The notes under the pieces were generated by a model. It did no database searches. It was given only the letters and a program-made list of their open reading frames with translations, and was not told the DNA's origin. This document shows, one piece after another, positions 33,161-60,454 of a stretch of DNA of 64,000 bases. Origin of the DNA: an uncultured Alphaproteobacteria bacterium (GTDB lineage Bacteria > Pseudomonadota > Alphaproteobacteria > RF32 > CAG-239); the NCBI GenBank assembly GCA_944392835.1, contig CALXYB010000008.1, forward strand, positions 4,821-68,820, given 5' to 3'. Numbering within the stretch: position 1 is the first letter of the stretch; the number at the start of each line of letters is the position of its first letter. Both the position numbers and the translations under genes were made by a program.

Positions 33161-33196
33161 GGCAGCCGTTTCATTGACTGCCATTTTAATTGGTTA
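33161..33196 (+). repeat. terminator hairpin + degenerate island-boundary core (attttaattggtta)
   Basis: ggcagccgtttcattgactgcc hairpin, then a core related to the TTGGTGAT repeats further right. Coincides with the GC-content drop. Confidence 0.35.
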
Positions 33197-33478
33197 TTTT
33201 CTTTTTAAAAGATGAAGTAATATTATAATCAACACTGGTGAAAGTAATAATAATGCATAGAACTCAAGCTCAGAAAGCTCCACTAGATAATTAAGTCCAA
33301 AAACAATTAAAATTGGAGAAAGTCCAAAGACAATCCTTAAAAAATGCCAATCTTCGGTCACTGTATCATGATCACAATCTGTCCAACGATATATCTTAGG
33401 ATAAATATAACATCCATAAATGAAAAGCATTAATCCCAAAACAACCAATAAACTTCCGATTATCTTTACTGTTTCCAT
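33194..33478 (-). CDS. small membrane protein, hypothetical
   Basis: Three TM helices. Confidence 0.35.
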   Translation of the reverse strand: METVKIIGSLLVVLGLMLFIYGCYIYPKIYRWTDCDHDTVTEDWHFLRIVFGLSPILIVFGLNYLVELSELEFYALLLLSPVLIIILLHLLKRK

Positions 33479-33690
33479 AATAATATTATTAAATAGTTAA
33501 ACATTATGATTAAATTTTGTTAAATTATAATATGTTAAAAAAATAAGTAAAGATTTTAATATAAAAAATTTGGACGAAATAAAAAAACAACATCAAACTA
33601 AAAAACTGTTTGTATTAGTGATGCGGTTAGCCTAAGATTGCGGAAATATTTCCTAATCACAAGTTATTTATAATCATTAAAATGCGAGAT

Positions 33691-34011
33691 TTATATATTA
33701 TAAAAGTTGGTAAAATAGACATATCTCGCCAAATAAACAAGAGCCGGTATGGATAGAATGATATAGGCTTTTTTGAGATTTGTTTTACGCTTTTTCCAAG
33801 CATAAACCGTAGGTGCAATTATTATCAACAATATTGTTAATGTCATTATGGTATAGTTAAACCTATTTTCATATGCCCAACCTAATGCCTCTGCATTCCA
33901 TGGCATTTGGTTGCTACTCATTTCTTTTGGATATGTTATGGCATATATAAAAACTAAAAATCCATTTAAGGACAATAAGAGATAAAACAGTATGAGTTTG
34001 ATTTTTTTCAT
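33691..34011 (-). CDS. small membrane protein, tandem paralog 1
   Basis: About 90% nucleotide identity to 34146..34466 over about 320 bp. Confidence 0.4.
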   Translation of the reverse strand: MKKIKLILFYLLLSLNGFLVFIYAITYPKEMSSNQMPWNAEALGWAYENRFNYTIMTLTILLIIIAPTVYAWKKRKTNLKKAYIILSIPALVYLARYVYFTNFYNI

Positions 34012-34145
34012 AATTGCACCTTCGATTAAATTTATTCAAAGTATATTCAGCATTTACCTTAAATACAATAAAAATCACCAACAATCTTTATCATATTTTA
34101 CATTAAGAATCATATCATGCCCATATTTCTTAAATTTAAATGAGG

Positions 34146-34466
34146 CTATATATTAAAAAAGTTGATAAAATAAATATATTGTATCAGATATAAAAGAGCC
34201 GGGATGGATAGAATTATATAGGCTTTTTTGAGATTTGTTTTACGCTTTTTCCAAGCATAAATCGTAGGTGCAATTATTATCAACAATATTGTTAATGTCA
34301 TTATGGTATAGTTAAACCTATTTTCATATGCCCAACCTAATGCCTCTGCATTCCATGGCATGCTGTCACTTGTCATATCATCTGGATATGTTACTGCAAT
34401 GATAAAAACCGCAAAGGCATATAATCCTGACAATAGATAAAACGGTATGAGTTTGATTTTTTTCAT
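34146..34466 (-). CDS. small membrane protein, tandem paralog 2
   Basis: Start trimmed to MKKIKLIPFYLL. Near-identical C-terminal two-thirds to paralog 1. Confidence 0.4.
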   Translation of the reverse strand: MKKIKLIPFYLLSGLYAFAVFIIAVTYPDDMTSDSMPWNAEALGWAYENRFNYTIMTLTILLIIIAPTIYAWKKRKTNLKKAYIILSIPALLYLIQYIYFINFFNI

Positions 34467-34480
34467 AATTGCACCTTCGG

Positions 34481-35524: not shown

Positions 35525-36014
35525 ACATTTTATCTTTTATAATATTTTCTATTTAAAGTAAAGGAAAAAATTCCTATCTTGTGGGTAATTATGTTTTATG
35601 TTATTTAAGATGTTCCAAAGAGCTTGCATTTTTGCTTAGCGCTCCCTTCCGGGTTCGAACTTCTATTGTAATTATGATACTTTTTTATAATTTTTACTCT
35701 TTCTTGCTCATAAGCTCAAGCTTTTAGCTTTCGCCAACTCGCTTCGGTCACTCCATTTGTAACGTTTTTCGCCTACACTTCCGTTTGGCTCAAAACCAAC
35801 AAATGTTCGCCTGTCGTTAAAAATTCCTCCACGGGAGAAATTTTTTTCCTCCAGCCCCATACTTTGACGATGAGCCCTTAAATTTCAAAAATAAAAAAAT
35901 TGTTGATTAAAAATAAAAGGAATAAAATAAAAAAGTTCGGACAAATTGAAAAAATGATGATTTTTGAAAAAGAAACATCCGAACTTGATGAAAGCCTTGG
36001 AAATAAAAGAAAAA

Positions 36015-36050
36015 GCAGCCATTCTCATGACTGCCGTTTGAATTGATGAT
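36015..36050 (+). repeat. terminator hairpin + degenerate boundary core (gtttgaattgatgat)
   Basis: Terminates the radical SAM gene in minus orientation. Core is related to the TTGGTGAT repeats. Confidence 0.35.
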
Positions 36051-36091
36051 ATTGTTAGTCTAAAGTTGCGAAAATATCTATTAGTTTTTTA

Positions 36092-37348
36092 TTAACGTTC
36101 TTTTATTTTATTTTTCATAAAAGTATTAGAAAATTGACAAAATCCACCACATTTTATCCCTTCTGGTGAATTATTGACATCACAATCCTTGCATGCCTCT
36201 TGTGTTTTTAATCGTGAGCGCAATGTATAGTCTAGCTCTTGTAGCAATGCTTCAGGTGTATACTTTTCAATTGGCCCTTTCTTATGCTTACGATCCATAT
36301 GACAAACTAACAGACGACCATTTACATCAATGTTTATTAGTTGACGAATATCACAACCATAATACCTTGATTCTTGTATTTTATCTGCTAAATGGACGGT
36401 GTTGTGAAAAACATGCGGATTATTTTTGTGTTTTTCATAAATGCTCCTCATATCAACATTCTGCAATTCATTATTAGCAGCGGCTCCTGCAATTATTGTT
36501 GGACGGATAAATAAATTTATTTCAAATGGTTTTAAATATTCAACTAATCTATCAATACCAGGTTCATTATCTTGATTGACTGTACATAACAAAGAACAAT
36601 TTATGCCATTTTCTTTTAATATCTTAATTCCTTCTATATCTTTTGCAAAAAGTCCTGGTCTTTTTCTACTTTTGTCATGTAATTCCCCGTATGAGTCAAT
36701 ACTTATAATTATATCACTTGAACTTTTTAATGAATTAATAGTTTTTTTATCTAATGAAGACAAATACTCTCCGTTAGTTACAATTGTATATAAAAAATTT
36801 TCTTTATTAACAAAATCACAAAGTTCAGATAGATCTTTTCTAAGCAAAGGCTCACCACCTAAAATTTCGAGTCTAGTTATTCCTAATTTTTTTAAGTGCT
36901 TGATTCTTTTTTTCAAAGTATCCAGAGAAGGCGGAGGTGTTGGAATTTCTGCTTTATAACAAATATCGCAATTACACTGGCAAGCATCTGTAATTTCAAT
37001 TCTGCCATAATAAGGCAAGTCATTATTCAAACAGTGAACTTTCTTAAAAGAATTGGGATGATTAGTTTGTTCTATTAGTTCATGACTGAGTAACTTCTGA
37101 ACTATAGATTTAGGCATTCCATTCAGATTAAAAATCGGTTGTTGAAGAATTTCTACCATTTCATTATCCAGAAACAAAACACTATTTATTGTTTTTCCTG
37201 ATATAGCCAACGTTCCATTAGGAGATATTCTGAGTAAGCTATTCTTCATAATAGAGTACGTTTCTGTGCCTATATAAACAGAGGTATCTTCTTTAATAAA
37301 CTCTTTTTTACATGGAACAGCTCGACTGTATAAATTTGTTACTTGCAT
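36092..37348 (-). CDS. radical SAM enzyme with C-terminal SPASM/twitch domain (peptide- or protein-modifying maturase-like)
   Basis: CQCNCDIC (CxxxCxxC). C-terminal Cys cluster CHMD...CKDCD...CGGFC. About 130-aa N-terminal extension, possibly substrate recognition. Start trimmed to ATG 37348 with AGGGG RBS. Confidence 0.75.
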   Translation of the reverse strand: MQVTNLYSRAVPCKKEFIKEDTSVYIGTETYSIMKNSLLRISPNGTLAISGKTINSVLFLDNEMVEILQQPIFNLNGMPKSIVQKLLSHELIEQTNHPNSFKKVHCLNNDLPYYGRIEITDACQCNCDICYKAEIPTPPPSLDTLKKRIKHLKKLGITRLEILGGEPLLRKDLSELCDFVNKENFLYTIVTNGEYLSSLDKKTINSLKSSSDIIISIDSYGELHDKSRKRPGLFAKDIEGIKILKENGINCSLLCTVNQDNEPGIDRLVEYLKPFEINLFIRPTIIAGAAANNELQNVDMRSIYEKHKNNPHVFHNTVHLADKIQESRYYGCDIRQLINIDVNGRLLVCHMDRKHKKGPIEKYTPEALLQELDYTLRSRLKTQEACKDCDVNNSPEGIKCGGFCQFSNTFMKNKIKER

Positions 37349-37413
37349 TTCATGGCCCCTAAGCGAGTTATTTTTACATAAAAACAATTAACAGTAATAT
37401 TTTTATCAAAAAA

Positions 37414-37444
37414 TGTCAATATTTTGTCAAAAAAAATATTGACA
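37414..37444. promoter_or_regulatory. perfect 12-bp inverted repeat (TGTCAATATTTT-N7-AAAATATTGACA) in divergent promoter region
   Basis: Read directly from the sequence between the rSAM gene and the kinase-HIT-AlaRS-like operon. Candidate operator. Confidence 0.45.
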
Positions 37445-37591
37445 CAGCAAATTATTAACGATATATTAACACAAAAAAAATGCAGTAAATTAAATAATTA
37501 ATTACACAAAATTGTAAATTTTATATAACTTCTAGCAAAATTAATCTTATTTCTTATTAATTTTTTCTAAATTAATATTGTAAAGGTAAAA

Positions 37592-38197
37592 ATGAAGAAC
37601 ACAATAATCTATTTAATTGGAGGCCCCGGAGTTGGCAAACAAACTATTGCTAAAGAAATTCAAAAAAAGCAATCTTTTACTTTAGTGGATAATCATTCGT
37701 ATACAAATGCCATTTTTTCGATATCAAAAAATTATTCTCATCCTAAACACGAAGAATACAGACTAAAAGTACGCAATATTGTTCTTGAAGCTATGGGCGA
37801 AATTTGTCCCAAAGGCGAATCTTTTATATTTACAAATGTAATATCTTTGGGCGAAGAAACTTCATATTATAAGCCAGTTGAAAATCTTGCTAATACACGA
37901 CGCTCCTTATTTATTCCTGTAATGTTATTATGCGAAATGAAAGAGAATCAAAAAAGAATAGCTAATCCTTTTCGCAAAAAATTTTTGAAAACAATAAATC
38001 CCGAAGCAGTCCAACAAATTGCGAACTTAGGACTGCCGGAGATAGAACACCCTAATCTTTTACGTTTAGATGTTACTAAGCTATCTGCAGCAGAAGCTGC
38101 TCTACAAATTATAACGCATGTTAACCATATTAGAAAAAAACAAAATGGTTATTATTCTAAATTCTCAACAAAAGCCAATGGAGGGGCAAATTTATGA
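37592..38197 (+). CDS. P-loop NTPase / small-molecule (nucleotide) kinase-like protein
   Basis: Walker A GGPGVGKQT at N-terminus. About 200-aa size, typical of AAA_33/CPT-like kinases. Stop overlaps next start (ATGA). Confidence 0.55.
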   Translation: MKNTIIYLIGGPGVGKQTIAKEIQKKQSFTLVDNHSYTNAIFSISKNYSHPKHEEYRLKVRNIVLEAMGEICPKGESFIFTNVISLGEETSYYKPVENLANTRRSLFIPVMLLCEMKENQKRIANPFRKKFLKTINPEAVQQIANLGLPEIEHPNLLRLDVTKLSAAEAALQIITHVNHIRKKQNGYYSKFSTKANGGANL

Positions 38198-39006
38198 TAA
38201 AAAATTGCGTTTTGTGCGATGGTTTAAAAGACGAGTTTCAAAATATTAAGGAACAATACCCTGAACTACAGAGCAATGTAACTTTGTTTGAAACTAAAAA
38301 CTTTAAAGTTATTCCAGATAAATTTCCGATTGCACCTAATCACATTATTATTCTGCCGAAAGAACATATTAATACATTTGCTGAATTTAATGAAGCCCAA
38401 GGGCGAGAAGTTGGTTATATATTAGATCGTTTAGAGAACACAACAAAATCTGATAATTTTATTATGTTTGAACACGGAACAAGTAAATCTGAAGAGTTAA
38501 ATACTCCACCACATATTAAGTCAATATTTCATGCACATTTACACTTTATTCCAAATGTTAAATGCAATACAGAGGATATGGATGTTTTTTTTCAACAGAA
38601 AAACGTTCAATTACTTGATTATGATGGTTCTCAAAGAAATATATCTGAGTTTCAAACACAATATTCTGGAAATGCAAATTTAGTCAATTTTATTAAAGAC
38701 AATGTTATATATGAAGATTCTGCTCGTACTTCAGTTGAATCCTATTTTTATATAAAAAGCTCAGATAATACACAATTATTCTTTCCAGAAAGACTTGTAA
38801 CGCCAAGAATTCCATCTCAATTTTTACGAGAGGCTTTAAGTGTGCAATGTGAAACACCTGAATGGAACTGGAAAGTCGGCATGACTGCTGAGGGGCGTCA
38901 AAAATATGGAACGAGAATTGTACAAATGGCCAAATTATTTAAGCAAAATGATTATAATAATATTTTAGTTATGACCAAATTTAAATCTGGTTATGGTAAA
39001 GAATAG
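38194..39006 (+). CDS. HIT (histidine triad) superfamily nucleotide hydrolase/transferase-like protein
   Basis: N-terminal CVLCDG. Histidine triad HAHLHFIP (HxHxHxx). Translationally coupled to the upstream kinase. Confidence 0.55.
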   Translation: MIKNCVLCDGLKDEFQNIKEQYPELQSNVTLFETKNFKVIPDKFPIAPNHIIILPKEHINTFAEFNEAQGREVGYILDRLENTTKSDNFIMFEHGTSKSEELNTPPHIKSIFHAHLHFIPNVKCNTEDMDVFFQQKNVQLLDYDGSQRNISEFQTQYSGNANLVNFIKDNVIYEDSARTSVESYFYIKSSDNTQLFFPERLVTPRIPSQFLREALSVQCETPEWNWKVGMTAEGRQKYGTRIVQMAKLFKQNDYNNILVMTKFKSGYGKE

Positions 39007-39015
39007 GATAAAAAA

Positions 39016-40119
39016 ATGAAAATAAAAGATATGCCAAGATTTAATAGAAAAGAAAGTCATTTTCATATGCAAAATATGATTGATGGTTTTCTTAATTACT
39101 TTCAGGAACATTCTTGTATAAAACATGAACCGGTTAAAATCTCATCAGGGATTGATCCATCTGTTCGCTTTATTGGCTCTCACATCAGTGTTTTAAAGCC
39201 TTATTTTTTAAATGACAACATTCCTACAGGAGGATATGTTATGTCACAGCCATGTATTCGTACACGAAATTTAAAAAATTATGAAAATGATGATTTTTAT
39301 CCCAATTGGGGATCATATTTCCCAAGTCTTGGAATACTGACTAAACCTGAAAGATTGGAGGATATTACAAAACAAACTTATAGCTTTATTCAAGAGCAGT
39401 GGAATATTGATCCTCACGATATAAGAATTCGTATTAGTGCTAATGATACAGATTTGATGGATCTAGCTCATAGTATATTCAAGTCCGAAATGTTTGAAAT
39501 AGACACCATGCAACCAAAATATTATCGCCACAAACTTGGTATAGATGGTGTTTGGGGGCGTAATTTCAATCTTGCTTTACGTGATTATGGAAAAGATACT
39601 TTTTCAGACATTGGAAATGTTATTATTTTGGAAAATCAGGATAAACAGCTTGGAATAGAAATTGCATTAGGAAGCTCTACTGTATTAAAACAAATTTATG
39701 GATTAAGTCATGTCATGGATTGTCACCCTGTATTAGGATTGGATAAGTATATTCAAAATCCTAATATCCGTGTAAAGATGGAAGATACAATTGTTACAAG
39801 TATGGCCTTATATAATGATGGACTAGAACCATCTAATAAGGATAACACTAACCGCTTGATGAAAAAATATCTTGAGATAATGAAAGCTTGCGTTGACAAG
39901 ACAAATCTCCCCAAAGAGGTTCTTAGAAAAACACTATACCAGTATGAATTATTGGAATATGGTTCAAATAATGGAATATATACTCAAAAAATTATGGATT
40001 TTATTTGTTCATCTTCTCAAGCTCAGAAATCAAAAGCTTTAGAAAATAAACAACAATTGGAAGCTTCTCCCTCAAATTCCATAATTTTTACATTATCGCA
40101 AAATAAATTATCTAGATGA
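39016..40119 (+). CDS. alanyl-tRNA synthetase catalytic-domain paralog (truncated, stand-alone class II aaRS-like)
   Basis: FLNYFQEH..DPSVRFIGSHISVLKPYFL..SQPCIRT..NDDFYPNWGSYF aligns with the AlaRS N-terminus FLDFFHSKGH..DPTLLFTNAGMNQFKDVFL..SQRCVRAGGKHNDLENVG..FFEMLGNFSF. 367 aa, versus about 875 aa for AlaRS. Confidence 0.55.
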   Translation: MKIKDMPRFNRKESHFHMQNMIDGFLNYFQEHSCIKHEPVKISSGIDPSVRFIGSHISVLKPYFLNDNIPTGGYVMSQPCIRTRNLKNYENDDFYPNWGSYFPSLGILTKPERLEDITKQTYSFIQEQWNIDPHDIRIRISANDTDLMDLAHSIFKSEMFEIDTMQPKYYRHKLGIDGVWGRNFNLALRDYGKDTFSDIGNVIILENQDKQLGIEIALGSSTVLKQIYGLSHVMDCHPVLGLDKYIQNPNIRVKMEDTIVTSMALYNDGLEPSNKDNTNRLMKKYLEIMKACVDKTNLPKEVLRKTLYQYELLEYGSNNGIYTQKIMDFICSSSQAQKSKALENKQQLEASPSNSIIFTLSQNKLSR

Positions 40120-40269
40120 CATTCCTCCGTAAAATTTTGGGAGCTATGAATATGCTTAAAGGATAGGATTGTGTTGAGTAGCACCTAAGCATTTTACCGA
40201 GAATAACCTCTGAACTTACATCAAGACAACTACTTAAAGAAAAGCGGGAAGTAACATTCCCGCCTTTCT

Positions 40270-44748: not shown

Positions 44749-44757
44749 GGATAAAAA

Positions 44758-45486: not shown

Positions 45487-45512
45487 ACATATATGGGGTT
45501 AATAGCATTACT

Positions 45513-51885: not shown

Positions 51886-54744
51886 ATGAAAAAAAATTTA
51901 CTCATAACAACCGCATTAGTTGCCGTTCTAAGTACAACTAGCGCTTATGCGGAATCACTCCCGAGTGATGCGTCAAATTTAACAACAGGTAAATATGTTG
52001 TTGAAGATACTGGTCAGGAAAATATCCATAACGGAAATATCAAACTCTCGGAAGAGGCTTCTTTAGAAGTAAATACCTATGTCGATATCGATGCCGAGCA
52101 GGATAAGGTCACCGATACAAGCCATATTTTTAACGTACAAGGAAATTTGGAAGTCGGCGATGCTACTAATGGCGGCGGTAGTTTATCGGTAAAACGCGAT
52201 GATGACAAAAAGCCGTTTATGAGCGTCAACGGGAATCTGACTGTCAATAACGGCGCCTCTGTTGATATGTCCAGCAACAGTGACTATTTCTCAACTATAA
52301 CTGTTAGCGAAAATGCCGATATTAAAGGCGGCAATGTTAAGATGAATAATGCTGAAATCTTTGTCAGAAAGGGTTTGAGCATTACCGGAGGCAACCTTGA
52401 ATTACAGAACAACGGTGGTTTGTATTTGCCGGAAGAGACTTCCAGTAATGTGACTATCAGCGGCGGCAAAATCACGATGAACGGCAACACGGAAATAGAC
52501 ACTTCCAAAGGCGATATTACCATCAGTGGCGGTGAAATTAATTTGAAAGATGCCAGTTCTATTAAAACCCGTGGCGGCAATATTAATATTTCAGATGGGA
52601 CGATTACCACTTCATATACCGGTAACGGAGACGGAGAAGTTATGTCTCTTATTGCCAACGGAAACGTTGAAATCAGTGGTGGAACGGTTAATTTGAATTC
52701 AACAACCATGGCTGCATTTGGCGGAAAAATGAATATTACCGGCGGAAATATTACATTAAAAGGAACTTCAACCAATGAGGCGTCTTTATGGTCTGCGGCC
52801 GGTGATTTAGATATTTCCGGAGCTGATACCGTTATCAATATGCAAGGCCATGCGGATATGGATAGCATTGATGACCGCCTTAATGTTGGAACACATACGA
52901 AAAATAATATTAATATTACAGATGCAACTATTAATATTTCCGGTACGGAAAACGAAATCGGCGCCGAAGGCTCTATTAATTTGAATAATGCAACATTGAA
53001 TGTTGCCGATGCCGGGGAGGTTTTGGTTTCAAATTCGGCTGATAAGAAACAAGGAACATTAAACCTTAATGGCGGTCTGATTAACTTAGGCGGTACAATT
53101 AATGGTAACGTTAATGGAAATGGCAATCTCTGTTTCAGAAACGCTGCCGCTACTGTCAGCGGTAACGTCTCCGGTTCTAATCTGGCTTTTGAGACTGACC
53201 ATTCTTTAAGTAAGGCGGTTTCAGGTACAATCGGCGATTTGGCTTCTCTGAGTGTTAATAAAGGCACATTGACCTATGATAAGCAAACCGGTACAATCGG
53301 TAATTTGAATGTTGCCGGCGGTTTGGATATTGGTACAAATACCGTCAATGCAACAGCCGTTGATTTTAAAGATAATTCAAAACTAGCCCTGCGTGTAGCT
53401 GCGGCTGATAATTACGGTAAAATCAATGCTGACAATATTACCATCGGCGATAAAACAACAATGAATGTCACTTTGGATAATGGTGTCGTTGGTAACGGTA
53501 AAACTTCTGAATTTAAATTCTTAAACGGTACGGTTAATGGTGATTTTACAAATAAAATTGCTGAAAATAACCGTTATGCGATTGAATGGACAGAGGATGG
53601 TTCTTTGAATATTACCGGAACAGCGACGGCATCTGATGTTGTTAATGAAGCCGGTGGTTCTACGAATAATGCCAAAACAGCGGAGGCCTGGGACAGTTTG
53701 ACATCTTCATCAACGGCAAGTGCCGGAGCTAAAGCAGTTGCTTCGGTTCTGAATGATTTATCGCAGAATAATGAACAGGCTTATGTTGAGGCTTTGACCG
53801 CGGTGGCTCCTGAAGTTGCACCGATGGTTCAAAAAACACAGACTGAAACGGCTAATCAGGTATTCGGGGCTGTATCAACTCGTTTAACCGGTGGTTCGGT
53901 TTCAACCGGCGGCGAGGGTATGTCTTCCGGCGATAACATTTTTGAACGCGCAGCGATGTGGGTTCAGGGCTTGTTTAATCATTCCAAACTTGATGATACG
54001 TCCAAAGCCAAAGGTTTTGATGCCGATACCAACGGTATTGCTTTCGGTTTTGAGAAGTTTGTGACCGATGATGTTAAAGCCGGTATCGGTTATGCTTACA
54101 GTAATACTGATATTGACGGCTTTAAGCGTGATACAGATGTTGATACTCATACCGCTATTTTGTATGGTGAATACAAACCGTCAAATTGGTATGTAAATGG
54201 TATTGCGACTTATGGTTGGTCTGATTATGACGAAAGCAAGAACGTTGCCGGTATCAAAGTTAATGCTGACTATGATGTTGAAACGTTTGGTTTGCAGGCG
54301 ATGACCGGTTATGATATGAACATTAAAGGTATCAATGTTACGCCGGAAACCGGTTTGCGCTATGTCCATATTAAGCAGGATGCTTATAAAGACTCTGCTG
54401 ACCAGCGCGTATCTGCCAATGACAGCGATATTTTGACCGGTGTTATCGGTGCCAAAGTCAGCAAGTCTTGGGAATTGTCTAATGGTATGACTGTCAAACC
54501 GGAAGCCCGCATTGCCGCGACTTATGACCTGTTTAACGATGATGTTAATTCGGTTGTTACGTTGGCGAATGGTTCGGCTTATACCGTTGATGGTGAAGCT
54601 CTTGACCGTTTCGGAATGGAATTTGGGGCTGGTGTAACTGCGGAAGTCAACGATAATGTCGAACTCTCGCTTGGTTATGAAGGCAAATTCCGTGAGGACT
54701 ACCAAGACCATACCGGATTGATTAATGCTAAATATAAGTTTTAA
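51886..54744 (+). CDS. autotransporter (type Va) with repetitive Gly/Asn-rich passenger and C-terminal beta-barrel
   Basis: Signal peptide. Passenger with repeated GGNI/ISGG beta-helix-like motifs. C-terminal domain ending ...NAKYKF, typical of autotransporter barrels. Confidence 0.75.
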   Translation: MKKNLLITTALVAVLSTTSAYAESLPSDASNLTTGKYVVEDTGQENIHNGNIKLSEEASLEVNTYVDIDAEQDKVTDTSHIFNVQGNLEVGDATNGGGSLSVKRDDDKKPFMSVNGNLTVNNGASVDMSSNSDYFSTITVSENADIKGGNVKMNNAEIFVRKGLSITGGNLELQNNGGLYLPEETSSNVTISGGKITMNGNTEIDTSKGDITISGGEINLKDASSIKTRGGNINISDGTITTSYTGNGDGEVMSLIANGNVEISGGTVNLNSTTMAAFGGKMNITGGNITLKGTSTNEASLWSAAGDLDISGADTVINMQGHADMDSIDDRLNVGTHTKNNINITDATINISGTENEIGAEGSINLNNATLNVADAGEVLVSNSADKKQGTLNLNGGLINLGGTINGNVNGNGNLCFRNAAATVSGNVSGSNLAFETDHSLSKAVSGTIGDLASLSVNKGTLTYDKQTGTIGNLNVAGGLDIGTNTVNATAVDFKDNSKLALRVAAADNYGKINADNITIGDKTTMNVTLDNGVVGNGKTSEFKFLNGTVNGDFTNKIAENNRYAIEWTEDGSLNITGTATASDVVNEAGGSTNNAKTAEAWDSLTSSSTASAGAKAVASVLNDLSQNNEQAYVEALTAVAPEVAPMVQKTQTETANQVFGAVSTRLTGGSVSTGGEGMSSGDNIFERAAMWVQGLFNHSKLDDTSKAKGFDADTNGIAFGFEKFVTDDVKAGIGYAYSNTDIDGFKRDTDVDTHTAILYGEYKPSNWYVNGIATYGWSDYDESKNVAGIKVNADYDVETFGLQAMTGYDMNIKGINVTPETGLRYVHIKQDAYKDSADQRVSANDSDILTGVIGAKVSKSWELSNGMTVKPEARIAATYDLFNDDVNSVVTLANGSAYTVDGEALDRFGMEFGAGVTAEVNDNVELSLGYEGKFREDYQDHTGLINAKYKF

Positions 54745-54773
54745 TAATTAGCTAACCGGTATAAAATGCTCTG

Positions 54774-54980
54774 TTACTTATTGGTTGCAGAGCATTTTTT
54801 ATTGTCAATACTGGCTTTGATGAATTGATGTTTGTGGTTGGGGCTATTAGGGCAAGTACCACCCTTTGGAGCTAGTTCCTTATGACCGCACCACTGACAA
54901 ATAAAGCCTTGACGATGGATTAAGTCCTTTTTTAGCCTTTCTAAAATTTCACGAATAGCTTTGACATCGTCTTTTTTCAT
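54774..54980 (-). CDS. small zinc-ribbon-like protein
   Basis: CQWCGH...CPNSPNHKH Cys/His cluster. Hairpin terminator at 54752-54790. Confidence 0.3.
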   Translation of the reverse strand: MKKDDVKAIREILERLKKDLIHRQGFICQWCGHKELAPKGGTCPNSPNHKHQFIKASIDNKKCSATNK

Positions 54981-55344
54981 TTTTTTGAGCTCCTAAAATT
55001 GATTATTGTTTATATAATAAAATTATTTAAGCATTTGATTTTTCAGTATTTTACTTGATTTTACTGTTGCAATTTGCGGTAGAGTATGTTATAATATATT
55101 ATATTTGAAATTGATTCGATTCGTTTTCATTTCAAATATAAATCACCGACATATTAGCCTGTATGGTCTGCTTTTTTCATCAGAGCGGATAAGGTTTTAT
55201 ATGTTTGAAAGTGAGGGGTGATATGCTGTACATTACAAACATCAAAAATAAGTTTTGTAGGGCATATCACTTACCCAAATCCGCAACTATTCAGAGCCTT
55301 TGTTAATTACCTTGGCTCTTTTTTTATTTTAAAGGAGTAAAAAT

Positions 55345-55668
55345 ATGAATGTTGAAAAAATAAAACAGCTGAACGACACATTCCGCAAAACATTCTGTGG
55401 CGGACGCGTTGTTTTAACCGTAGGTATTCAATCAATGCCTACTGATGACCGAAGTGAGCTTTTGAAACAAGTTCAGGAGTTCGATAAATTTACCGAAGAC
55501 AACGACCCCTACGGGGAACATGATTTTGGGGCAATAAGTTTCAAAAACGATACATACTTCTGGAAAATCGACTATTACGATACCGATTATAATTATTTAA
55601 GCCCCGACGCAAGCGACTCCAATGTCACAAACCGTGTCTTAACAATTATGCGGGGAGACGAATATTGA
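55345..55668 (+). CDS. conserved hypothetical (plasmid-associated DUF-like) protein
   Basis: 107-aa ORF with RBS AAGGAG. Stop overlaps next start. Confidence 0.4.
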   Translation: MNVEKIKQLNDTFRKTFCGGRVVLTVGIQSMPTDDRSELLKQVQEFDKFTEDNDPYGEHDFGAISFKNDTYFWKIDYYDTDYNYLSPDASDSNVTNRVLTIMRGDEY

Positions 55669-56195
55669 GTAACCCGAATTACAAATGTCAGGGAGATACC
55701 GACAACTTATGCGGCATTTATGCCAGCCTAAATAGTATTATCAAAGCAACCGATGGTGTGATGACAATTAGTCAGACCAGAGCGAGAACCCTTTTCGGGG
55801 AAATTATCAGCCATTTACACCGTCGGAGGCTATTATATAAAATTCACCAACATGGGACGAATGTGCAACAGCTTAACGAATATTTGACCTTACTTGAAGA
55901 CAAACTCGCCGAAAAAATAAATATACATCATTATTTCCCTTTTTCAGAAAGAACCAGAACTAAAACAGTTATCAAACGACTTACTGATATGTCTTCTGAA
56001 AAACACATCGCGGTAATTTTGCCTTTAGAGGGAAAATACTATCACTGGAGCCTGCTCGATAAAGTAGTCGGTAATCGCATTTATTTAATTGATTCTAATC
56101 ATCTTAAATATATTAATATTGATAAAATTCCCGATATTCACCAGATGTGTCCCGAAGAAGTATGCATCGTTGTTGCCGATACGGAGGCTGTATAA
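55665..56195 (+). CDS. hypothetical protein (possible Cys-peptidase-like N-terminus)
   Basis: CQGDTDNLCGIYASLNS weakly resembles Q...C papain-like active-site spacing. Speculative. Confidence 0.3.
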   Translation: MSNPNYKCQGDTDNLCGIYASLNSIIKATDGVMTISQTRARTLFGEIISHLHRRRLLYKIHQHGTNVQQLNEYLTLLEDKLAEKINIHHYFPFSERTRTKTVIKRLTDMSSEKHIAVILPLEGKYYHWSLLDKVVGNRIYLIDSNHLKYINIDKIPDIHQMCPEEVCIVVADTEAV

Positions 56196-56314
56196 ATGAA
56201 GTATACCGTGCTTTCACAGATGATTTTGTGTGTAAACAAAGTCAAAAACCGCATTTATTGCACACCTGTAAACGCAAGTTATAAATTTCAATTTCACATA
56301 AAGGAGCAAAAAAT

Positions 56315-56860
56315 ATGATTTTTAACTATATCCGTGTTTCAACTACCGACCAAAACACCGAACGACAACTTTTAGATATTCCGTGCGACCGAGCTTATAT
56401 TGAAAAAATCAGCGGCAAAAATACCGACCGCCCTGAATTACAGGCTATGTTATTAAATATTCGTTCCGGCGACATTTTAAATATTCACGAAATGAGTCGT
56501 TTGGCTCGTAATACTCGGGATTTGCTGAACCTTGTAGAGGAAATTACAGCCAAAGGAGCGACTATAGTCTTTTATAAAGAAAATTTGACCTTCAAAGGCG
56601 ATGGAAAGCAAGACCCTTATCAGAAAATGATGATGACGATGTTAGGAGCCGTTGCGGAGCTTGAACGTAATTTAATCCTTGAACGCCAACGAGAGGGTAT
56701 AGCTCTTGCCAAACTTCACGGCAAATATAAAGGCGGTCAGCCTAAACTAACCGCCCAACAAGTCGAAGAAATAAAAGCCCTTGTTAATAATCGCACACCA
56801 ATAACGCAAATTGCCAGACAATATAACATCAGCCGTCGTACTGTATATAACTACCTATGA
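56315..56860 (+). CDS. small serine recombinase (resolvase/invertase family)
   Basis: IRVSTTDQ catalytic Ser motif. C-terminal HTH. 181 aa. Confidence 0.8.
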   Translation: MIFNYIRVSTTDQNTERQLLDIPCDRAYIEKISGKNTDRPELQAMLLNIRSGDILNIHEMSRLARNTRDLLNLVEEITAKGATIVFYKENLTFKGDGKQDPYQKMMMTMLGAVAELERNLILERQREGIALAKLHGKYKGGQPKLTAQQVEEIKALVNNRTPITQIARQYNISRRTVYNYL

Positions 56861-56897
56861 AAAAAGGCGGTCAACCCATAAGCCAACCACCCAACAA

Positions 56898-57650
56898 TTA
56901 ATTCCCATTTTTAATGTCGCTAATAATATTGCGTAAAATTTCTTTTCCTTTTCCCCCTGCAAAAGCTAAATCATATATTCTAAAACGTTTGAGATGAATA
57001 AAGTTAGCATAAACAGCCTTGTACGTCATATTGGTGTTTTTGAGGCCAATCGTTAAATTTCTCCTCATAAATGTTCTTTTTCCGCCAAATAATGCTTTGA
57101 AACTGTACTGTATTGCAGATTCTAAATCATATTGAGGTCTGACGACAAAGGGCCTAATTCTACTTTGAGGGAAGTATTTTTTTATACGTTTCGATAGTTT
57201 CCCTTTTTCCCATCTAGTTAAAGTTCTGAAAAAAATTCCGTGAATATGTGGTGTCATCAGAGTACCATCTTGCTGGAATGATATCCGAGGAAATTCATCT
57301 AAAGCAACATTAGCGATATAATCATATCCTTTAAAAATCTTTTTTATTTTCTTTTGAAATGACTTGTGTTGGAAATTCCAATTATCCTGCCCAAAATTAT
57401 ATTTATCGACAACAACAGTAAACATAGAGATATTGTTATTACCGATAACTGGTTCCAAGTATGAATAAGCAACATCTGAAAAGTTTTTGAGAGCTAGAGG
57501 TTGCATCATTCCAAATCCAGTTCGACTATTAACATACCTTATTAATCGGCTCTTTACATAAACATCTTTAACATACAAATCAATTGCTCTTGTCACTTTT
57601 CTGAGTTGCAAATTTGCATTTTGTTCAAATCTTTCTGAAAAAGTTTTCAT
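56898..57650 (-). CDS. HUH-type replication-initiator / relaxase-like protein
   Basis: PHIHGIFF (HUH motif). Downstream Tyr-containing YKAVYANF. Confidence 0.4.
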   Translation of the reverse strand: MKTFSERFEQNANLQLRKVTRAIDLYVKDVYVKSRLIRYVNSRTGFGMMQPLALKNFSDVAYSYLEPVIGNNNISMFTVVVDKYNFGQDNWNFQHKSFQKKIKKIFKGYDYIANVALDEFPRISFQQDGTLMTPHIHGIFFRTLTRWEKGKLSKRIKKYFPQSRIRPFVVRPQYDLESAIQYSFKALFGGKRTFMRRNLTIGLKNTNMTYKAVYANFIHLKRFRIYDLAFAGGKGKEILRNIISDIKNGN

Positions 57651-57792
57651 TTTAATTTATTCCTTAATTGACTGATTTAACTGCATTATGTTTAAAATAT
57701 GGTTGTATACATACATTTGCAGTTTTCGCAAAAACGTTGTAATACAACGTTTTTCAAAAAAAGGGGAACAGTTTAAATTGTCCCCCTTTCTA

Positions 57793-58512
57793 TTATTGTA
57801 ATTTAAAAAACTCGAAATCATCCAGCTTTTTAATTAAAGCAACATCTGTGCTTTTGAATGCTTCACCCTCTGTAACCCAGATGACGTAACTTTCATCTTC
57901 AATTTTATTATTTTTCAAAAAGTTAACGATTTTAGTGCTCAAATAAGGTTTGGCTGAATTAGATGAAGAGGCTTTATGATTTTCTTCTGTATCATCATCA
58001 CTTTCATCGTCATCATCTTCGTCAAGGTCATCATTCTCTTCAGATGTTTCATTGCTAAAGTCAAATTCCAATTGGTTTTCATTATTCTCTTCTTCCTCTT
58101 CTTCAGATTGCTCTTTTGAACGAGGATTGGCAAAATAATCAATCCCAAATTTTTTCAACTCTTCGTTAGCTCTTTTAACATCATATTGAAGCTCATCAAA
58201 GTGTTTCAAGACTCTAACATAAGTTCTGATTCTTGCTTTTATGTGTTCATCATCACAGTCACTTGAAACGTTCATGGCTAACATTAATACCATTTTCATT
58301 GGTTTTGAAGCTGAGTATTTAATATTTGCCTTTTTACATCGCTTTTTAATGACTTTCTCGTTGTAATGAAGACAAACGTCATAACACCCAATGATGGCCT
58401 GGCGTATGTGTTTACGTCCTTTTAACTCAAATTTTCCAAAAGATGCGAAATCTTTTTTTGCTATGTTGAGTTTTTCAACGATTTCGTCTTTATTATAAGA
58501 TTCAAGAAACAT
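57793..58512 (-). CDS. acidic (D/E-rich) hypothetical protein
   Basis: Long Asp/Glu run in centre. Overlaps next ORF start. Confidence 0.35.
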   Translation of the reverse strand: MFLESYNKDEIVEKLNIAKKDFASFGKFELKGRKHIRQAIIGCYDVCLHYNEKVIKKRCKKANIKYSASKPMKMVLMLAMNVSSDCDDEHIKARIRTYVRVLKHFDELQYDVKRANEELKKFGIDYFANPRSKEQSEEEEEENNENQLEFDFSNETSEENDDLDEDDDDESDDDTEENHKASSSNSAKPYLSTKIVNFLKNNKIEDESYVIWVTEGEAFKSTDVALIKKLDDFEFFKLQ

Positions 58513-58816
58513 TTTGTATTTCCTTTATTTCTTTGTCTGCATAATAAAGAGTGAGAAAAAGTTTCAATAACTGCTCATAAATAGCCAAAGCCTCATCATC
58601 AGATAAAACTTCATTTGGATACCATGATTTAATTACATCTTCTTTTCTCATAGCTTCACAATTTAGACAAAATTGATACACAGCCAATTGGCTGGAAAGA
58701 CAATTCATTTGCCTTACAATATGAACAATAGCGTAAACATCGTTAGTTTGGAAATTGTTAGTTTCTAAGGGTTTTGTGTGATTGATAGAAACATCCAACG
58801 ATATTGTAACAATCAT
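58502..58816 (-). CDS. hypothetical protein
   Basis: 104-aa ORF coupled to downstream gene. Confidence 0.3.
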   Translation of the reverse strand: MIVTISLDVSINHTKPLETNNFQTNDVYAIVHIVRQMNCLSSQLAVYQFCLNCEAMRKEDVIKSWYPNEVLSDDEALAIYEQLLKLFLTLYYADKEIKEIQNVS

Positions 58817-58906
58817 TAGAAAAAGCTAACAATCGTTATTGGAAACAAATAAATTGCTTGTTTTGTCTAAAATCACATAATATTATTATTTTTAACAATT
58901 GGAGAT

Positions 58907-60436
58907 TTGAAAATGATAAAAAATGCAGTTTTATTAAGGCGAGTATCGACCGTTATGCAGGAGCGTGATGGTAATTCACTTCAAAATCAATCAGAAATGC
59001 TAACTCAATACTGTGAACGAAAAGAGATGACTATCATTAAAGACGCAGAAATAGTCGAGAGCAGTACCAGAGGCGAACGTAAAAAATTTATGGAAGTCAT
59101 AAAGTTCTGCCAACAACAACGCGGTGGTGTTGCTTTAGTATGTTTGAAGACTGACAGACTGTTTCGAAACTTCAAGAATTATACATTGATTGATGAAATG
59201 CGAAAAAGCGGACAGCTTGAGCTTCACCTGATTCAAGAAAACTTAGTGTTAAATAAAGATTCCAAAGCCGGTGACTTAACCATACTCGGTTTAAATGTCG
59301 TTATGGCTCAAAACTATGCTCTTAGCTTACGAGATAATGTGGTTTACGGTATGGATTATTCTGTCAATCAAGGACGGTGTATGTCGAAAGCTCCAGCAGG
59401 CTATTTAAATATAAGAACACCGGACGGAAAAGCCGCTGTAATTATTGACAATGAACGAGCTCCAATTATTCAGAAACTTTTTGAAGAATACGCAACAGGG
59501 CTTTATTCGGTTAAGGACATGATGAAAAAATGCAAAGAATGGGGGCTTGTCAGTCGGTTTTCCGGTAAACCGTTTGATACAAGCACAATTCACCGCATAT
59601 TAAATAACAAATTCTACATTGGGGAAATGCTGTATAAAGACCAATGGCACAAGCACAATTACGAAACATTGATTGCACCTGCTTTGTTCAAAACTTGTCA
59701 GGATATTATGCACGGTCGCAAACCAGAAGAACCTAAACATTTCAAAACCACCGAAAAGCCCTTTATCTTTCGAGGACTGATAACTTGTGGAGAATGCGGT
59801 TGTATGGTTAGTAGCTACCGCAAAACGAAACCTAGCGGTAGAGAATATGTTTATCTGAAATGTTCGCATTTCAAGGGAAACTGTAACAATCCGCAAGTTA
59901 ATGAAAACGTTGTTTTACAACAAATTGAAGACGAATTGAAAAACTTGTCCGTACCGCAAGAGATAATGGGCTATCTTAAAGCTGATATGGAGAAAATCAT
60001 AAATCGACAGAATGAAGCCCATAACCGTGAAGTCAAAGCCATTCGCAAGAAATACGATGACTGTCAGGATAAAATTAAACGTCTGCGGTCATTACTGCTT
60101 GAGGGATATATTACACCGGAAGAATACCGTGACATGAATGAAGACCTTAAAAATGAGCAGTACGAACTAGAGGGGAAATCAGAATTGTTGACAGAAGCTG
60201 ATGAAAAGTTTTCAATCGCAGTCGCGACAATACTTTCCTTGGGCAATAATGCGTATAAAATCTTTCAGAGTTCGAAAGTAGAAACAAAAAGAGAGATTTT
60301 GCACATCTTACTTTCGAACTTGAAATTGCAAGACCGTAAAATCTCTTATACCTTTAGAAAACCTTACGATTACATCAAGTCTTTAAATAAAAAAATACCC
60401 TCAAAAACTGAGGGTATCGCAATTGGTGATGCTTAA
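58907..60436 (+). CDS. large serine recombinase
   Basis: N-terminal resolvase domain (RRVSTVMQ), recombinase domain, Cys zinc ribbon (CGECGC...C...C) and coiled-coil. Last five codons lie inside the 22-bp direct repeat. Confidence 0.85.
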   Translation: MKMIKNAVLLRRVSTVMQERDGNSLQNQSEMLTQYCERKEMTIIKDAEIVESSTRGERKKFMEVIKFCQQQRGGVALVCLKTDRLFRNFKNYTLIDEMRKSGQLELHLIQENLVLNKDSKAGDLTILGLNVVMAQNYALSLRDNVVYGMDYSVNQGRCMSKAPAGYLNIRTPDGKAAVIIDNERAPIIQKLFEEYATGLYSVKDMMKKCKEWGLVSRFSGKPFDTSTIHRILNNKFYIGEMLYKDQWHKHNYETLIAPALFKTCQDIMHGRKPEEPKHFKTTEKPFIFRGLITCGECGCMVSSYRKTKPSGREYVYLKCSHFKGNCNNPQVNENVVLQQIEDELKNLSVPQEIMGYLKADMEKIINRQNEAHNREVKAIRKKYDDCQDKIKRLRSLLLEGYITPEEYRDMNEDLKNEQYELEGKSELLTEADEKFSIAVATILSLGNNAYKIFQSSKVETKREILHILLSNLKLQDRKISYTFRKPYDYIKSLNKKIPSKTEGIAIGDA

Positions 60437-60454
60437 CTCACGGTTTCCGAGCTA
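60421..60454 (+). repeat. direct repeat, right copy
   Basis: Identical 22-mer to 47102..47123. Overlaps the large serine recombinase stop codon. Confidence 0.8.

Follow-up and report, generated by a model that had tools for sequence, protein, structure and literature searches.

What are the recurrent hairpins followed by a short core (TTGGTGAT) that punctuate a genomic island of an uncultured human-gut alphaproteobacterium, and which enzyme could have placed them there? In the 64,000-nt stretch of DNA analysed here (the window), the original prediction described such repeats in a single orientation and saw in them integration sites that partition the island into modules, after the manner of tandem SCC elements mobilised by large serine recombinases (LSRs). 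The reading favoured below, with a probability of roughly three in four, is that integrative elements were stacked in tandem at the 3′ end of a tRNA-Glu gene to form the island.

Repeats and elements in the window

All six copies of the hairpin followed by TTGGTGAT for which positions had been proposed (6/6) were found, each on the + strand; for the “five clear copies”, only four coordinate pairs had been given. TTGGTGAT occurs nine times in the window vs. 2.8 times expected, and at least nine occurrences were obtained in 0 of 100 shuffles. The heptamer TGGTGAT is present 17 times on both strands, and only 4 of the 17 (starting at 47105, 48013, 48200, and 60424) are preceded by a strong hairpin of −12.5 to −26.7 kcal/mol ending 3–6 nt upstream. 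With 4.1% of random 45-nt windows folding equally well, the probability of at least four such cases among 17 is about 0.004, and the association of hairpin and core is non-random. All copies are also good bidirectional terminators between convergent or tandem genes.

The copies are hybrid junctions of at least three kinds rather than equivalent repeats. In each junction, a variable terminator hairpin, often within a conserved ~125-nt module, is followed by the TGGTGAT core; past the core comes either the tRNA body or one of three types of element end. Hairpin sequences vary while the core is constant, and comparison of the junctions indicates that hairpins are terminators supplied by each element and form no conserved part of the repeat; of the repeat unit initially proposed, only the 7-nt core is common to all. 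A 34-nt direct repeat (94% identity) at 47102–47135 and 60421–60454, with 13,319 nt between, is limited to the two junctions bearing the same element-end type. A weight matrix built from 25 homologous sites retrieved only these two in the window (53 and 57 bits, respectively) and nothing in 20 shuffles of it. The two 34-nt copies do not bound a single element: one is the left end of the catA cassette, the other that of the LSR532 element. A profile of the ~125-nt module derived from other genomes matches 47887–48019 (E = 1e-30), 35927–36050 (E = 9e-32), and 33115–33194 (E = 2e-9). Because of the last two matches, the copies described as degenerate (33161–33196 and 36015–36050) are identified by sequence homology as true relatives of the junctions, as had been proposed.

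From left to right, the decayed junction at 33115–33194 (+ strand) comprises a partial module, a hairpin (ggcagccgtttcattgactgcc), and a degenerate core (ATTGGTTAT, 33181–33189); the junction at 35927–36075 (+ strand) has the ~125-nt module in full, then a hairpin and a degenerate core (AATTGATGAT, 36041–36050) followed, on alignment with other junctions, by a decayed element end of type P′-1 (ATTGTTAGTCTAAAGTTGCGA). The ~11-kb module beyond it (36051–47111, no strand assigned) lacks an integrase and contains radical SAM, AAA_18, HIT, Peptidase_S66, HSP70/MreB-like, DUF6362, and DUF6291 genes. Its right end (46760–47101, including the hairpin at 47074–47100) is an arm common to other elements, with 89–91% identity in loci L068 and L069 to a flank directly joined to the LSR532 element; several assemblies break at 46724–46780. 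At 47102–47135 (+ strand), the core (47105–47111) meets a P′-1 end (GCTTAACTCACGCTTTACGAGCTA), which opens a 0.9-kb single-gene cassette (47112–48019, − strand) made up of this end, catA (47138–47764, − strand), and a ~125-nt module with hairpin and core (47887–48019). The gene codes for a type A chloramphenicol acetyltransferase (Pfam CAT, E = 2e-73; NCBIfam CatA, 279.5 for a cut-off of 270). Alignment with intact tRNA-Glu loci, together with BLAST hits on the tRNA ends of L030, L040, and L048, revealed at 48013–48031 (− strand; complement AATCTCGTTGGGATCACCA) a fragment of 19 nt that is identical to the tRNA-Glu 3′ end. Between two cores lies a 187-nt GC-rich mini-element (48020–48206, − strand) that ends with a hairpin (48170–48195) and the core TATTGGTGAT (48197–48206), has a possible terminal stem on the − strand, and recurs as a unit at seven other loci in differing contexts; no match to it was found in Rfam.

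The 12.2-kb LSR509 element (48207–60430, + strand) was delimited by its left arm, backbone synteny, and domains. This arm, P′-2 (AGTTCCGCAATGAATTTCGAACTTTTGC, 48207–48234), differs in sequence from the 34-mer and in L055 adjoins a module, hairpin, and core. The cargo includes an autotransporter gene (51856–54744), and the backbone, syntenic in L050, L052–54, L057, and L071, comprises DUF3768, a 176-aa gene, a small resolvase gene (56315–56860), three genes of unknown function, and the LSR gene (58913–60436). The last codons of the latter form the right-arm hairpin (60400–60420) and the core (60424–60430); the copy at 60421 had correctly been read as the end (IGDA*) of a recombinase gene. At 60421–60454 (+ strand), the right arm and core are joined to a P′-1 end (GCTTAACTCACGGTTTCCGAGCTA), whose TAA is the stop codon of the LSR gene, and homology with variant strain L002 stops at 60466. 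The left part of the LSR532 element follows (60431–64000, no strand assigned), defined by gene calls and junction comparison, with a 422-aa gene (60543–61811, + strand), a 532-aa LSR gene (61806–63404, − strand), and a 162-aa resolvase-like gene (63505–63993, − strand). Past the window end the element continues with TnpV, a 639-aa tet-like gene, Fic, and Rep, and its right end was not reached, no further core junction occurring over more than 13 kb from its left end. From the junction, tRNA, and LSR evidence, the window therefore holds a stack of elements: decayed junctions at 33.2 and 36.0 kb, an 11-kb module, a catA cassette, a 187-nt mini-element, a 12.2-kb LSR element, and a second LSR element.

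The core and the tRNA-Glu gene

The core is no arbitrary integration-site sequence. Junction and intact tRNA-Glu match base for base at the 3′ end of the tRNA, and TGGTGAT is, on this alignment, the reverse complement of that end (ATCACCA); directly past it, sequences split into tRNA body or element arm. The comparison covered 16 related species-level genomes and 44 metagenome contigs; all of it rests on MAG and metagenome assembly, in which repeats can cause misjoins, and it showed neither an excision product nor a circular junction or an empty site. A 21-mer extended core was present in 18 contigs of the 16 alphaproteobacterial species genomes, in only 1–2 copies per genome and always in the same context, which answers the concern that the core might abound genome-wide. 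An intact tRNA-Glu lies 0.7–1.7 kb to the right of the site with its 3′ end facing it in 12 of the 18 contigs, an arrangement also found in 19 of the 44 metagenome loci. Module copies in the same orientation, 2–7 per 8-kb locus and mostly 0.6–1.7 kb apart, form arrays that end at the tRNA. The window does not contain the anchoring tRNA, only the 19-nt fragment; ARAGORN found no intact tRNA in the window, the site at 48013–48031 included.

Flanks assort combinatorially at the core, and from strain to strain the modules vary independently of one another. Clustering of the 86 junctions gave 44 groups of left flanks and 47 of right flanks, and nine clusters on each side have at least two partners. 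At the core, at least six unrelated left flanks meet the left end of the LSR532 element, and five different right flanks follow the 3′ end of the LSR509 gene. A GNAT cassette (99.8% identity) adjoins tRNA-Glu in two species with differing distal neighbours. The proposed partition of the island into modules is borne out by these flanks and by the abundant presence/absence polymorphism of modules among relatives.

Candidate enzymes and competing explanations

LSRs, already named in the original prediction, are most likely the enzymes that make the junctions. They combine Resolvase, Recombinase, and Zn_ribbon_recom domains, with no PDB homologue detectable by sequence. The homologues of LSR509 (507 aa), at 53–99% identity, vary in length from 507 to 585 aa because their sequences diverge exactly after AIGD/E, and many go on with PNGIRTRVAALRGPRPRPLDDGT, a read-through of the tRNA-Glu complement. 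The ORF crosses the core in dozens of homologues and at two different tRNAs, the gene directly abutting an intact tRNA-Glu in L050 and L057–59 and a tRNA-Lys in L071. Since the base after TGGTGA in L071 comes from tRNA-Lys, the crossover would fall within TGGTGA. Furthermore, the motif CGA(A/G)C begins at +18 in each of the three types of element arm (54/72, 3/3, and 2/2 sites) and at +13 in tRNAs (22/29 for Glu, 1/1 for Lys), and is thus 5 bp nearer the core in the tRNA than in element ends. In serine integrases, the motif of the zinc-ribbon domain is shifted 5 bp inward in attB (PMC3783163), and the shift seen here matches this attB/attP signature. The left half-site is poorly conserved past ~10 nt, which is unusual for a serine integrase site. 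The LSRs probably catalyze the exchange, and the common arm type suggests that they may also act on the small cassettes.

Alternatively, the att sites could be served by a tyrosine integrase or another recombinase encoded elsewhere, the LSR genes being mere passengers at element ends. Any likeness to tyrosine-integrase att cores had been denied at the outset, wrongly so, as tRNA gene 3′ ends are the classical position of such cores; in the available portion of a review, every tRNA-targeting integrative mobilizable element tabulated has a tyrosine integrase (PMC5704250). Cassettes without recombinase, the weak left half-site, and the serial use of product sites, which fits tyrosine recombinases more easily, also speak for this explanation. 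It is nevertheless unlikely, given that neither the window's called and long ORFs nor the gene tables for related LSR-centred loci yielded a Phage_integrase domain or a tyrosine recombinase, that the LSR ORF spans the core so widely and at two tRNAs, and that the 5-bp shift is specific to LSRs. Slightly less likely still, the polymorphism could stem mainly from RecA-dependent homologous recombination or gene conversion between terminator modules and 34-mers. Direct repeats of 34 to ~160 nt with 75–95% identity would permit this, and the 13.3 kb between the two 34-mers is absent in L068 and L069; however, many junctions join flanks homologous only in the 7-nt core (LSR coding end vs. module, tRNA body vs. 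three unrelated arm types), and the breakpoint is always TGGTGAT. Some RecA-dependent deletions across the 34–160-nt identities could have occurred as well.

It is hardly credible that the hairpin and TTGGTGAT are merely a generic terminator-proximal or REP-like intergenic motif foreign to recombination: the terminator quality of the copies and their position between convergent or tandem genes would suit such a motif, but not the rarity of the extended core, its place beside tRNA-Glu at the 12/18 genome and 19/44 metagenome loci that include the tRNA, the combinatorial flanks, or the variation of hairpins around a fixed core. Least probable of all is an SCC-type element proper, in which Ccr recombinases insert cassettes at the end of a conserved protein gene. 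The direct repeats between tandem modules, the LSRs (two LSR-like genes, of 532 and 162 aa, are adjacent), and the resistance genes are all reminiscent of SCC, but the CcrB, CcrA, and CcrC models score only 22–77 bits vs. cut-offs of 700–900 (CcrB 77 for 900, CcrA 70 for 700), the target is a tRNA gene instead of rlmH, the host is an alphaproteobacterium, and the protein gene overlapped by the repeat is the recombinase gene itself. The Ccr scores and the tRNA target refute membership of the SCC family; the likeness first proposed survives as an analogy of mechanism.

Insertion model and known systems

Under the preferred reading of serial LSR-mediated insertion at tRNA-Glu, each junction most likely keeps a copy of the tRNA 3′ end where a mobile element, the chloramphenicol-resistance one included, inserted, and the island would therefore be a stack of exchangeable modules. 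In these arrays the tRNA occupies the − strand at the right-hand end, and its final bases (ATCACCA) are what reads as the TGGTGAT core. Each element carries its own rho-independent terminator hairpin at the tRNA-facing end, either in the conserved ~125-nt module (small cassettes) or in the last recombinase codons (LSR509 elements), and at its far end an arm resembling the tRNA acceptor and T-arm, with CGA(A/G)C 5 bp further from the core. An LSR would exchange strands inside TGGTGA, possibly at the GA dinucleotide. Because the exchange would fall there, each insertion would remake hairpin and core beside the tRNA, keeping the tRNA terminated and the tRNA-side junction free for the next insertion, and would leave hairpin, core, and element arm on the far side. 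Older elements would be pushed from the tRNA by repeated insertion and their junctions would decay, as at 36.0 and 33.2 kb. The integrase-less units (0.9-kb catA cassette, 11-kb module, 187-nt mini-element) have ends in common with LSR-bearing elements and are presumably moved in trans or along with neighbours; the small cassettes may still be mobile. One point against the model is that canonical serine integrases recombine attP only with attB, and serial insertion beside the tRNA needs the product site to remain a substrate.

Phage-type serine integrases (A118/LI, Bxb1, phiC31) have the same three domains and share the 5-bp offset of the outer motif, which sits nearer the centre in host sites than in those of the element. 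Unlike theirs, the sequences here have no PDB homologue detectable by sequence, target a tRNA acceptor and T-arm, clearly conserve only one half-site, place the attP core in the 3′ end of the int gene, and have product sites that appear reusable. SCCmec and other SCC elements, which CcrAB or CcrC inserts at the rlmH 3′ end, also involve LSRs, carry resistance genes, and include some units without recombinases. The present recombinases lie outside the Ccr family, insertion is at a tRNA, the motif is shifted between attP and attB in the arms, and the host belongs to another phylum. As in integrons (IntI, attI, attC), promoter-poor, mostly single-gene cassettes (acetyltransferases, nitroreductase, catA) lie in one orientation relative to their sites and have one chromosomal anchor. 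In contrast to integrons, there is no IntI tyrosine recombinase or attC-type sequence here, the anchor is a tRNA gene, cassette genes lie in both orientations, and the candidate enzymes are serine recombinases on larger neighbouring elements.

According to the same review, CIMEs have retained their att sites but no integration genes; they sit beside integrase-bearing elements in tandem arrays at the target gene's 3′ end and are mobilisable in cis (PMC5704250). This accretion-mobilisation of ICE/IME tandems (Streptococcus ICESt1/3) resembles the tandem att-bearing integrase-less units of the present island, although CIMEs are described as ICEs or IMEs that have decayed and are served by tyrosine integrases, whereas the ~1-kb cassettes here look uniform and single-gene, unlike random deletion products, with up to seven module copies per 8-kb locus. 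Tandem arrays at tRNA genes, including the tycheposons of Prochlorococcus, likewise arise by site-specific integration at a tRNA (10.1101/2020.12.28.424599, PMC7192596); in arrays of the tycheposon type, each new insertion displaces older elements further into the island, the units are set apart by partial tRNA copies, and decayed elements and remnants accumulate. Only 27 of 937 tycheposons use an LSR (10.1101/2020.12.28.424599), an enzyme that is the rule rather than the exception here. The present arrays further differ from tycheposons in repeating only 7 nt of the tRNA, in a recombinase gene that itself spans the crossover site, in dense ~1-kb integrase-less single-gene units with a conserved ~160-bp composite site, and in their host, a human-gut alphaproteobacterium. 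Serial tRNA insertion of this kind would add to the known forms of tandem accretion at tRNA genes.

Junctions at the 3' end of tRNA-Glu

The original prediction described six copies of a hairpin followed by a short core, all in one orientation, and all six are found on the + strand of the window. TTGGTGAT occurs 9 times against 2.8 expected, a number reached in none of 100 shuffles. The core heptamer TGGTGAT occurs 17 times, and a strong hairpin (-12.5 to -26.7 kcal/mol) directly precedes four of these occurrences, which start at 47105, 48013, 48200 and 60424 on the + strand. Since just 4% of random 45-nt windows fold as strongly, the association between hairpin and core has a P of ~0.004. A 34-nt direct repeat with 94% identity connects 47102-47135 and 60421-60454, and a weight-matrix scan of the window for more copies of this 34-mer returned the two known ones and no others. 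As had been proposed, the copy at 60421-60454 holds the last codons (IGDA*) of a large serine recombinase (LSR) gene, 58913-60436 (+), referred to here as LSR509.

An exact-match search of a species-representative genome collection with the 21-mer AATTGGTGATGCTTAACTCAC retrieved 18 contigs of 16 uncultured alphaproteobacterial MAGs. Two further matches in Flavobacteriaceae, the flanks of which are near-identical to each other, carry neither the hairpin nor any other junction feature and were treated as unrelated to the junction system. All 18 alphaproteobacterial loci have an A-run and a sequence-variable hairpin before the 21-mer and, after it, NNTTNMCGAR, beyond which their DNA is unrelated. 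The right flanks of these loci have in common a segment of ~150 nt, located 0.7-1.2 kb away, which in the alignment terminates in another hairpin and WTTGGTGAT leading directly into CCCAACGGGATTCGAACCC.... In 12 of the 18 genome-collection loci, ARAGORN reads what follows this core as an intact tRNA-Glu, with anticodon TTC or CTC, encoded on the opposite strand; arrays also terminate at an intact tRNA-Glu in 19 of 44 metagenome loci. Because hairpin and core run into an intact tRNA-Glu, TGGTGAT is recognized as the reverse complement of the tRNA 3' end, ATCACCA, and the junctions are very likely att junctions at tRNA-Glu. An ARAGORN scan of the window for tRNA and tmRNA genes found none, so that the tRNA origin of the core is recognizable only through other genomes; inside the window, tRNA sequence is limited to the 7-nt cores and, at 48013-48031, a stretch of 19 nt from the 3' end of tRNA-Glu, delineated by alignment with intact tRNA-Glu loci. 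A search of Rfam recovered no family at gathering or permissive thresholds.

Directly 3' of TGGTGAT lies either the tRNA body or one of three element arms: P'-1 (GCTTAACTCACGGTTTACGAGCT), borne by cassettes and by the element of LSR532, a 532-aa LSR encoded at 61806-63404 (-); P'-2 (AGTTYYGCAAYGAATTTCGAAC), borne by LSR509 elements; and P'-3 (GCGGTTTCCAGTCATCGCGAAC), borne by elements adjoining a related LSR. On the 5' side of the core, the hairpin often lies in a conserved junction module of ~125 nt, a profile of which detects 2-7 copies in the same orientation per 8-kb locus. The copies are mostly spaced at 0.6-1.7 kb, and the final copy of each array abuts the tRNA. In the window, this profile matches 35927-36050 and 47887-48019, and weakly 33115-33194. 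The junction hairpins vary in sequence and always have a T-run after the hairpin on the - strand; we infer that they are - strand terminators for the tRNA or for the neighboring cassette gene.

Several other roles of the junction module were considered and rejected. The consensus displays only a weak stem of 5-6 bp without convincing covariation, which does not fit a structured RNA or an attC-like fold. A small encoded peptide was discarded as its frame is not conserved, owing to indels in the A-run, and a long-range pairing between module and P'-1 arm was set aside as the left side varies without compensation while the right side is constant. Similarity to a decayed tRNA-Glu fragment is weak (p = 0.002-0.04) and limited to the CTC isoacceptor. 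In four loci (L036, L041, L046 and L048), an insertion of ~84 nt that reads ..cttagctttgctaggc..gccgcagcaaaggttagttggtcgcgcaagtaggaaacttgtttccgtagc.. and holds internal inverted repeats separates the A-run from the hairpin and could represent a nested repeat element of small size.

Units of the island and probable recombination at the core

Read from left to right, the window contains a decayed junction at 33.2 kb, a junction at 36.0 kb whose module is complete, whose core is mutated and whose P'-1 arm is decayed, an 11-kb integrase-less module (36051-47111), the junction at 47102, a 0.9-kb catA cassette (47112-48019) whose gene scores above the NCBIfam cut-off for type A CAT, a GC-rich mini-element of 187 nt (48020-48206), the 12.2-kb LSR509 element (48207-60430), the junction at 60421 and, to the right of it, the LSR532 element, which extends past the window's right end. 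At least five units in the window are separated by TGGTGAT-containing junctions. The limits of the LSR509 element follow from locus L055, where the opposite end of an LSR509-type element consists of module, hairpin and TGGTGAT followed by AGTTTTGCAACGAATTTCGAAC, the same arm as at window position 48207. An integrase is missing from the catA cassette, the 11-kb module, the 187-nt mini-element and most of the ~1-kb cassettes, the cargo of which includes GNAT and hexapeptide acetyltransferases, nitroreductase, DUF218, catA and unknowns. Megablast of 46.5-61 kb against a plasmid collection gave no match.

The window is 100% identical to a stretch of a 123-kb contig in an ENA metagenome assembly, and the comparisons of junctions among strains rest on metagenomic assemblies. 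A variant strain (L002, L003, L005, L007) has the recombinase in common with the window and diverges completely just past 60466, where it continues with a peptidase S8/AAA module and a different LSR. Copies of the left end of the LSR532 element are 99-100% identical across loci and are joined at TGGTGAT to the end of the LSR509 gene in the window, to three different modules in L064/L067, L066 and L031, to another module in L041, and to a homologue of window 46760-47101 in L068 and L069, which lack the 13.3 kb between the two 34-mers. The 86 P'-1 junctions from genome and metagenome loci fall into 44 left-flank and 47 right-flank clusters, of which 9 left-flank and 9 right-flank clusters have at least two partners. 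Two species carry a 99.8% identical GNAT cassette adjacent to tRNA-Glu and differ in its distal neighbors. Apparent deletions in L023-25 were excluded from the polymorphism count because their 100-nt breaks are those expected of scaffold gaps in scaffold records. The core could have been a generic terminator-proximal motif, or its modules could have been invariant among relatives, and either outcome would have counted against the original prediction. Neither was seen, as the 21-mer is present once or twice per alphaproteobacterial genome, each time in the hairpin context, and module-wise presence/absence is abundant among related loci.

Additional observations concern the content of individual units. 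The 11-kb module carries, within 36092-45486, radical SAM, AAA_18 and HIT-like genes and an HSP70/MreB-like gene of 468 aa with two unknown partners, which may be anti-phage defense genes; related strains have OLD/Gabija-like, restriction-modification, Abi and GmrSD genes at the same site. In the 0-9 kb beyond the window's right end (L001/L063), the LSR532 element bears TnpV, DUF3768, Fic and a Rep-like gene, together with a 639-aa EF-G-like gene of the ribosomal-protection tet type, so that tetracycline resistance likely accompanies chloramphenicol resistance on the island. The 187-nt mini-element has a TGGTGAT core on either side and reappears as a whole in seven other loci (L081, L082, L086, L095, L096, L101, L114) next to intact tRNA-Glu or different elements, in three well-aligned forms and a divergent one (L114). 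Read on the - strand, its 3' end (..AATCTCGTTGGGATCACCA) derives from the tRNA and can base-pair with its 5' part, a pairing suggestive of a small tRNA-like RNA. Rfam contains no match to the mini-element. Units of ~3 kb in L073, L076, L077, L096 and L103 terminate in a C-terminal fragment of an LSR532-type gene (-) that abuts a C-terminal fragment of an LSR509-type gene (+), followed by the core, and look like decayed or rearranged composites of both element types.

Further left, MazG, MBL and MarR genes at 28-32 kb share 70-80% identity with genes located within or close to the arrays of L044, L047, L048 and L049, the last of which carries MBL and MarR as a cassette beside tRNA-Glu. No recognizable junctions are left in 28000-32000, and these array homologues may mark an older, fully decayed part of the array. 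Other repeats comprise a 300-nt duplication inside the island (33692-33991 and 34147-34446, 85% identity) that yields two paralogous 106-aa genes of unknown function; 60-nt direct repeats inside the LSR509 element (50419-50478 and 51441-51500, 85% identity) flanking a lipoprotein-like hydrolase gene (50584-51378) called at 252, 256 or 264 aa depending on the strain; 47-nt direct repeats (26483-26529 and 27268-27314, 89% identity) flanking a 176-aa gene among assorted small accessory genes left of the island; and tandem arrays of 87 nt x 4 and 93 nt x 5 (63-72% identity) at 1936-2849, in a 647-aa ORF (1665-3608, -) with no Pfam match.

Recombinases and a one-sided site

LSR509, annotated on the record from an ATG at 58913, and LSR532 both have the Resolvase catalytic, Recombinase and zinc-ribbon domains (PF00239, PF07508 and PF13408), and LSRs likely catalyze the exchange at the core. 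A sequence search of the PDB with LSR509 gave no match. Its close homologues range from 507 to 585 aa because their sequences diverge exactly after ..EG(I/V)AIGD/E; beyond this point, many are the translated complement of tRNA-Glu, and the others run on into tRNA-Lys or other element arms. At the DNA level, the LSR509-type gene directly abuts an intact tRNA-Glu(CTC) in L050 and L057-59 and an intact tRNA-Lys(TTT) in L071. As the base after TGGTGA in L071 is that of tRNA-Lys, strand exchange is placed within TGGTGA. The start of the motif CGA[AG]C is at +18 in each of the three types of element arm vs +13 in tRNA-Glu and tRNA-Lys. In serine integrases, the zinc-ribbon-domain motif lies 5 bp nearer the center in attB than in attP (Rutherford et al., PMC3783163), and the attB-type inward shift of ~5 bp is present here in the right half-site only; by the numbering of that study, GA in TGGTGA would correspond to the central dinucleotide. 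The left half-site is conserved over only ~10 nt, no mirror-image motif was found left of the crossover, and the crossover is confined to TGGTGA. Judged by the shared P'-1 arm, the cassettes may be served by an LSR532-type enzyme.

We tentatively propose, with a probability of about 0.3 and from sequence comparisons, that these gut Alphaproteobacteria possess an active integron-like gene-capture platform run by LSRs. Integrase-less cassettes of ~1 kb, each made of one gene and a composite site of ~160 bp (module, terminator, TGGTGAT and tRNA-like arm), would be stacked at tRNA-Glu by enzymes supplied in trans by the larger elements. Serine integrases recombine attP with attB and need a directionality factor for excision, no candidate for which emerged here; reuse of product sites is not expected of the canonical enzymes. 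Here, the difference between "attP-like" and "attB-like" sites would be confined to the tRNA-side half-site, so that each insertion would restore both a target and a donor site fit for further use. Stacking could then continue without limit, and excision might not require a directionality factor, while the state of integration would alter the recombinase's own C-terminus. Apart from this proposal, stacking at tRNA-Glu very likely accounts for the assembly of a resistance and defense island in a poorly known group of human-gut bacteria. The junctions also point to a serine-integrase family that naturally targets highly conserved sequence, namely the acceptor and T-arm of the tRNA-Glu and tRNA-Lys genes, and whose attP and attB arms can be read straight from genomes for integrase bioprospecting. 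The one-sided architecture poses the question of directionality for serine integrases whose product sites are reused and, if the ~1-kb cassettes are mobile, they would form a system of cassette arrays in which serine recombination takes the place of tyrosine recombination.

Relation to known mobile systems

The original prediction read the repeats as SCC-like accretion by Ccr-type recombinases. The likeness that holds, as an analogy only, is that target-end direct repeats, here the TGGTGAT junctions, lie between tandem units. However, the recombinases are not Ccr, as LSR509 scores 77 bits against the CcrB model (NCBIfam cut-off 900) and LSR532 scores 70 bits against CcrA (cut-off 700), ~ten-fold or more under the cut-offs; and the SCC target is the integration-site sequence in the 3' end of rlmH (orfX), whereas the target here is the 3' end of tRNA-Glu, rlmH being absent from every junction examined. 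By analogy, the island would resemble SCC in how it works but is not SCC.

Integrons have an IntI-type tyrosine recombinase next to attI, whereas no tyrosine recombinase domain was found in the called or long ORFs of the window or in the gene tables of related LSR-centered loci; genes beside the tRNA, assigned by reading translations without a domain search, are efflux, LysS, deacetylase-like and FTHFS genes. The attC sites of integrons are imperfect palindromes with R''/L''-L'/R' boxes, and the junctions, already predicted to be unlike them, are instead built as module, terminator, TGGTGAT and tRNA-like arm. CIMEs are flanked by functional att sites, lack recombination genes and are mobilized together with a neighboring element; by sequence, the cassettes have putative att sites on both sides and no recombination genes.

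The phenomenon itself is tandem accretion at a tRNA gene, a known process, described for integrative elements in general (PMC7192596), for tycheposons (10.1101/2020.12.28.424599) and for ICE/IME/CIME tandems (PMC5704250). Like tycheposon-like islands, the arrays in related genomes have an intact tRNA at one end and same-orientation partial copies between units, but each tycheposon-like unit has its own integrase, which is not so here. What is unusual is the near-exclusive presence of serine recombinases at a tRNA target, a recombinase gene that extends across the crossover site, which makes the C-terminus of its product dependent on the neighbor, the one-sided architecture of the sites, and the dense arrays, whose uniform units each consist of a single gene and lack an integrase.
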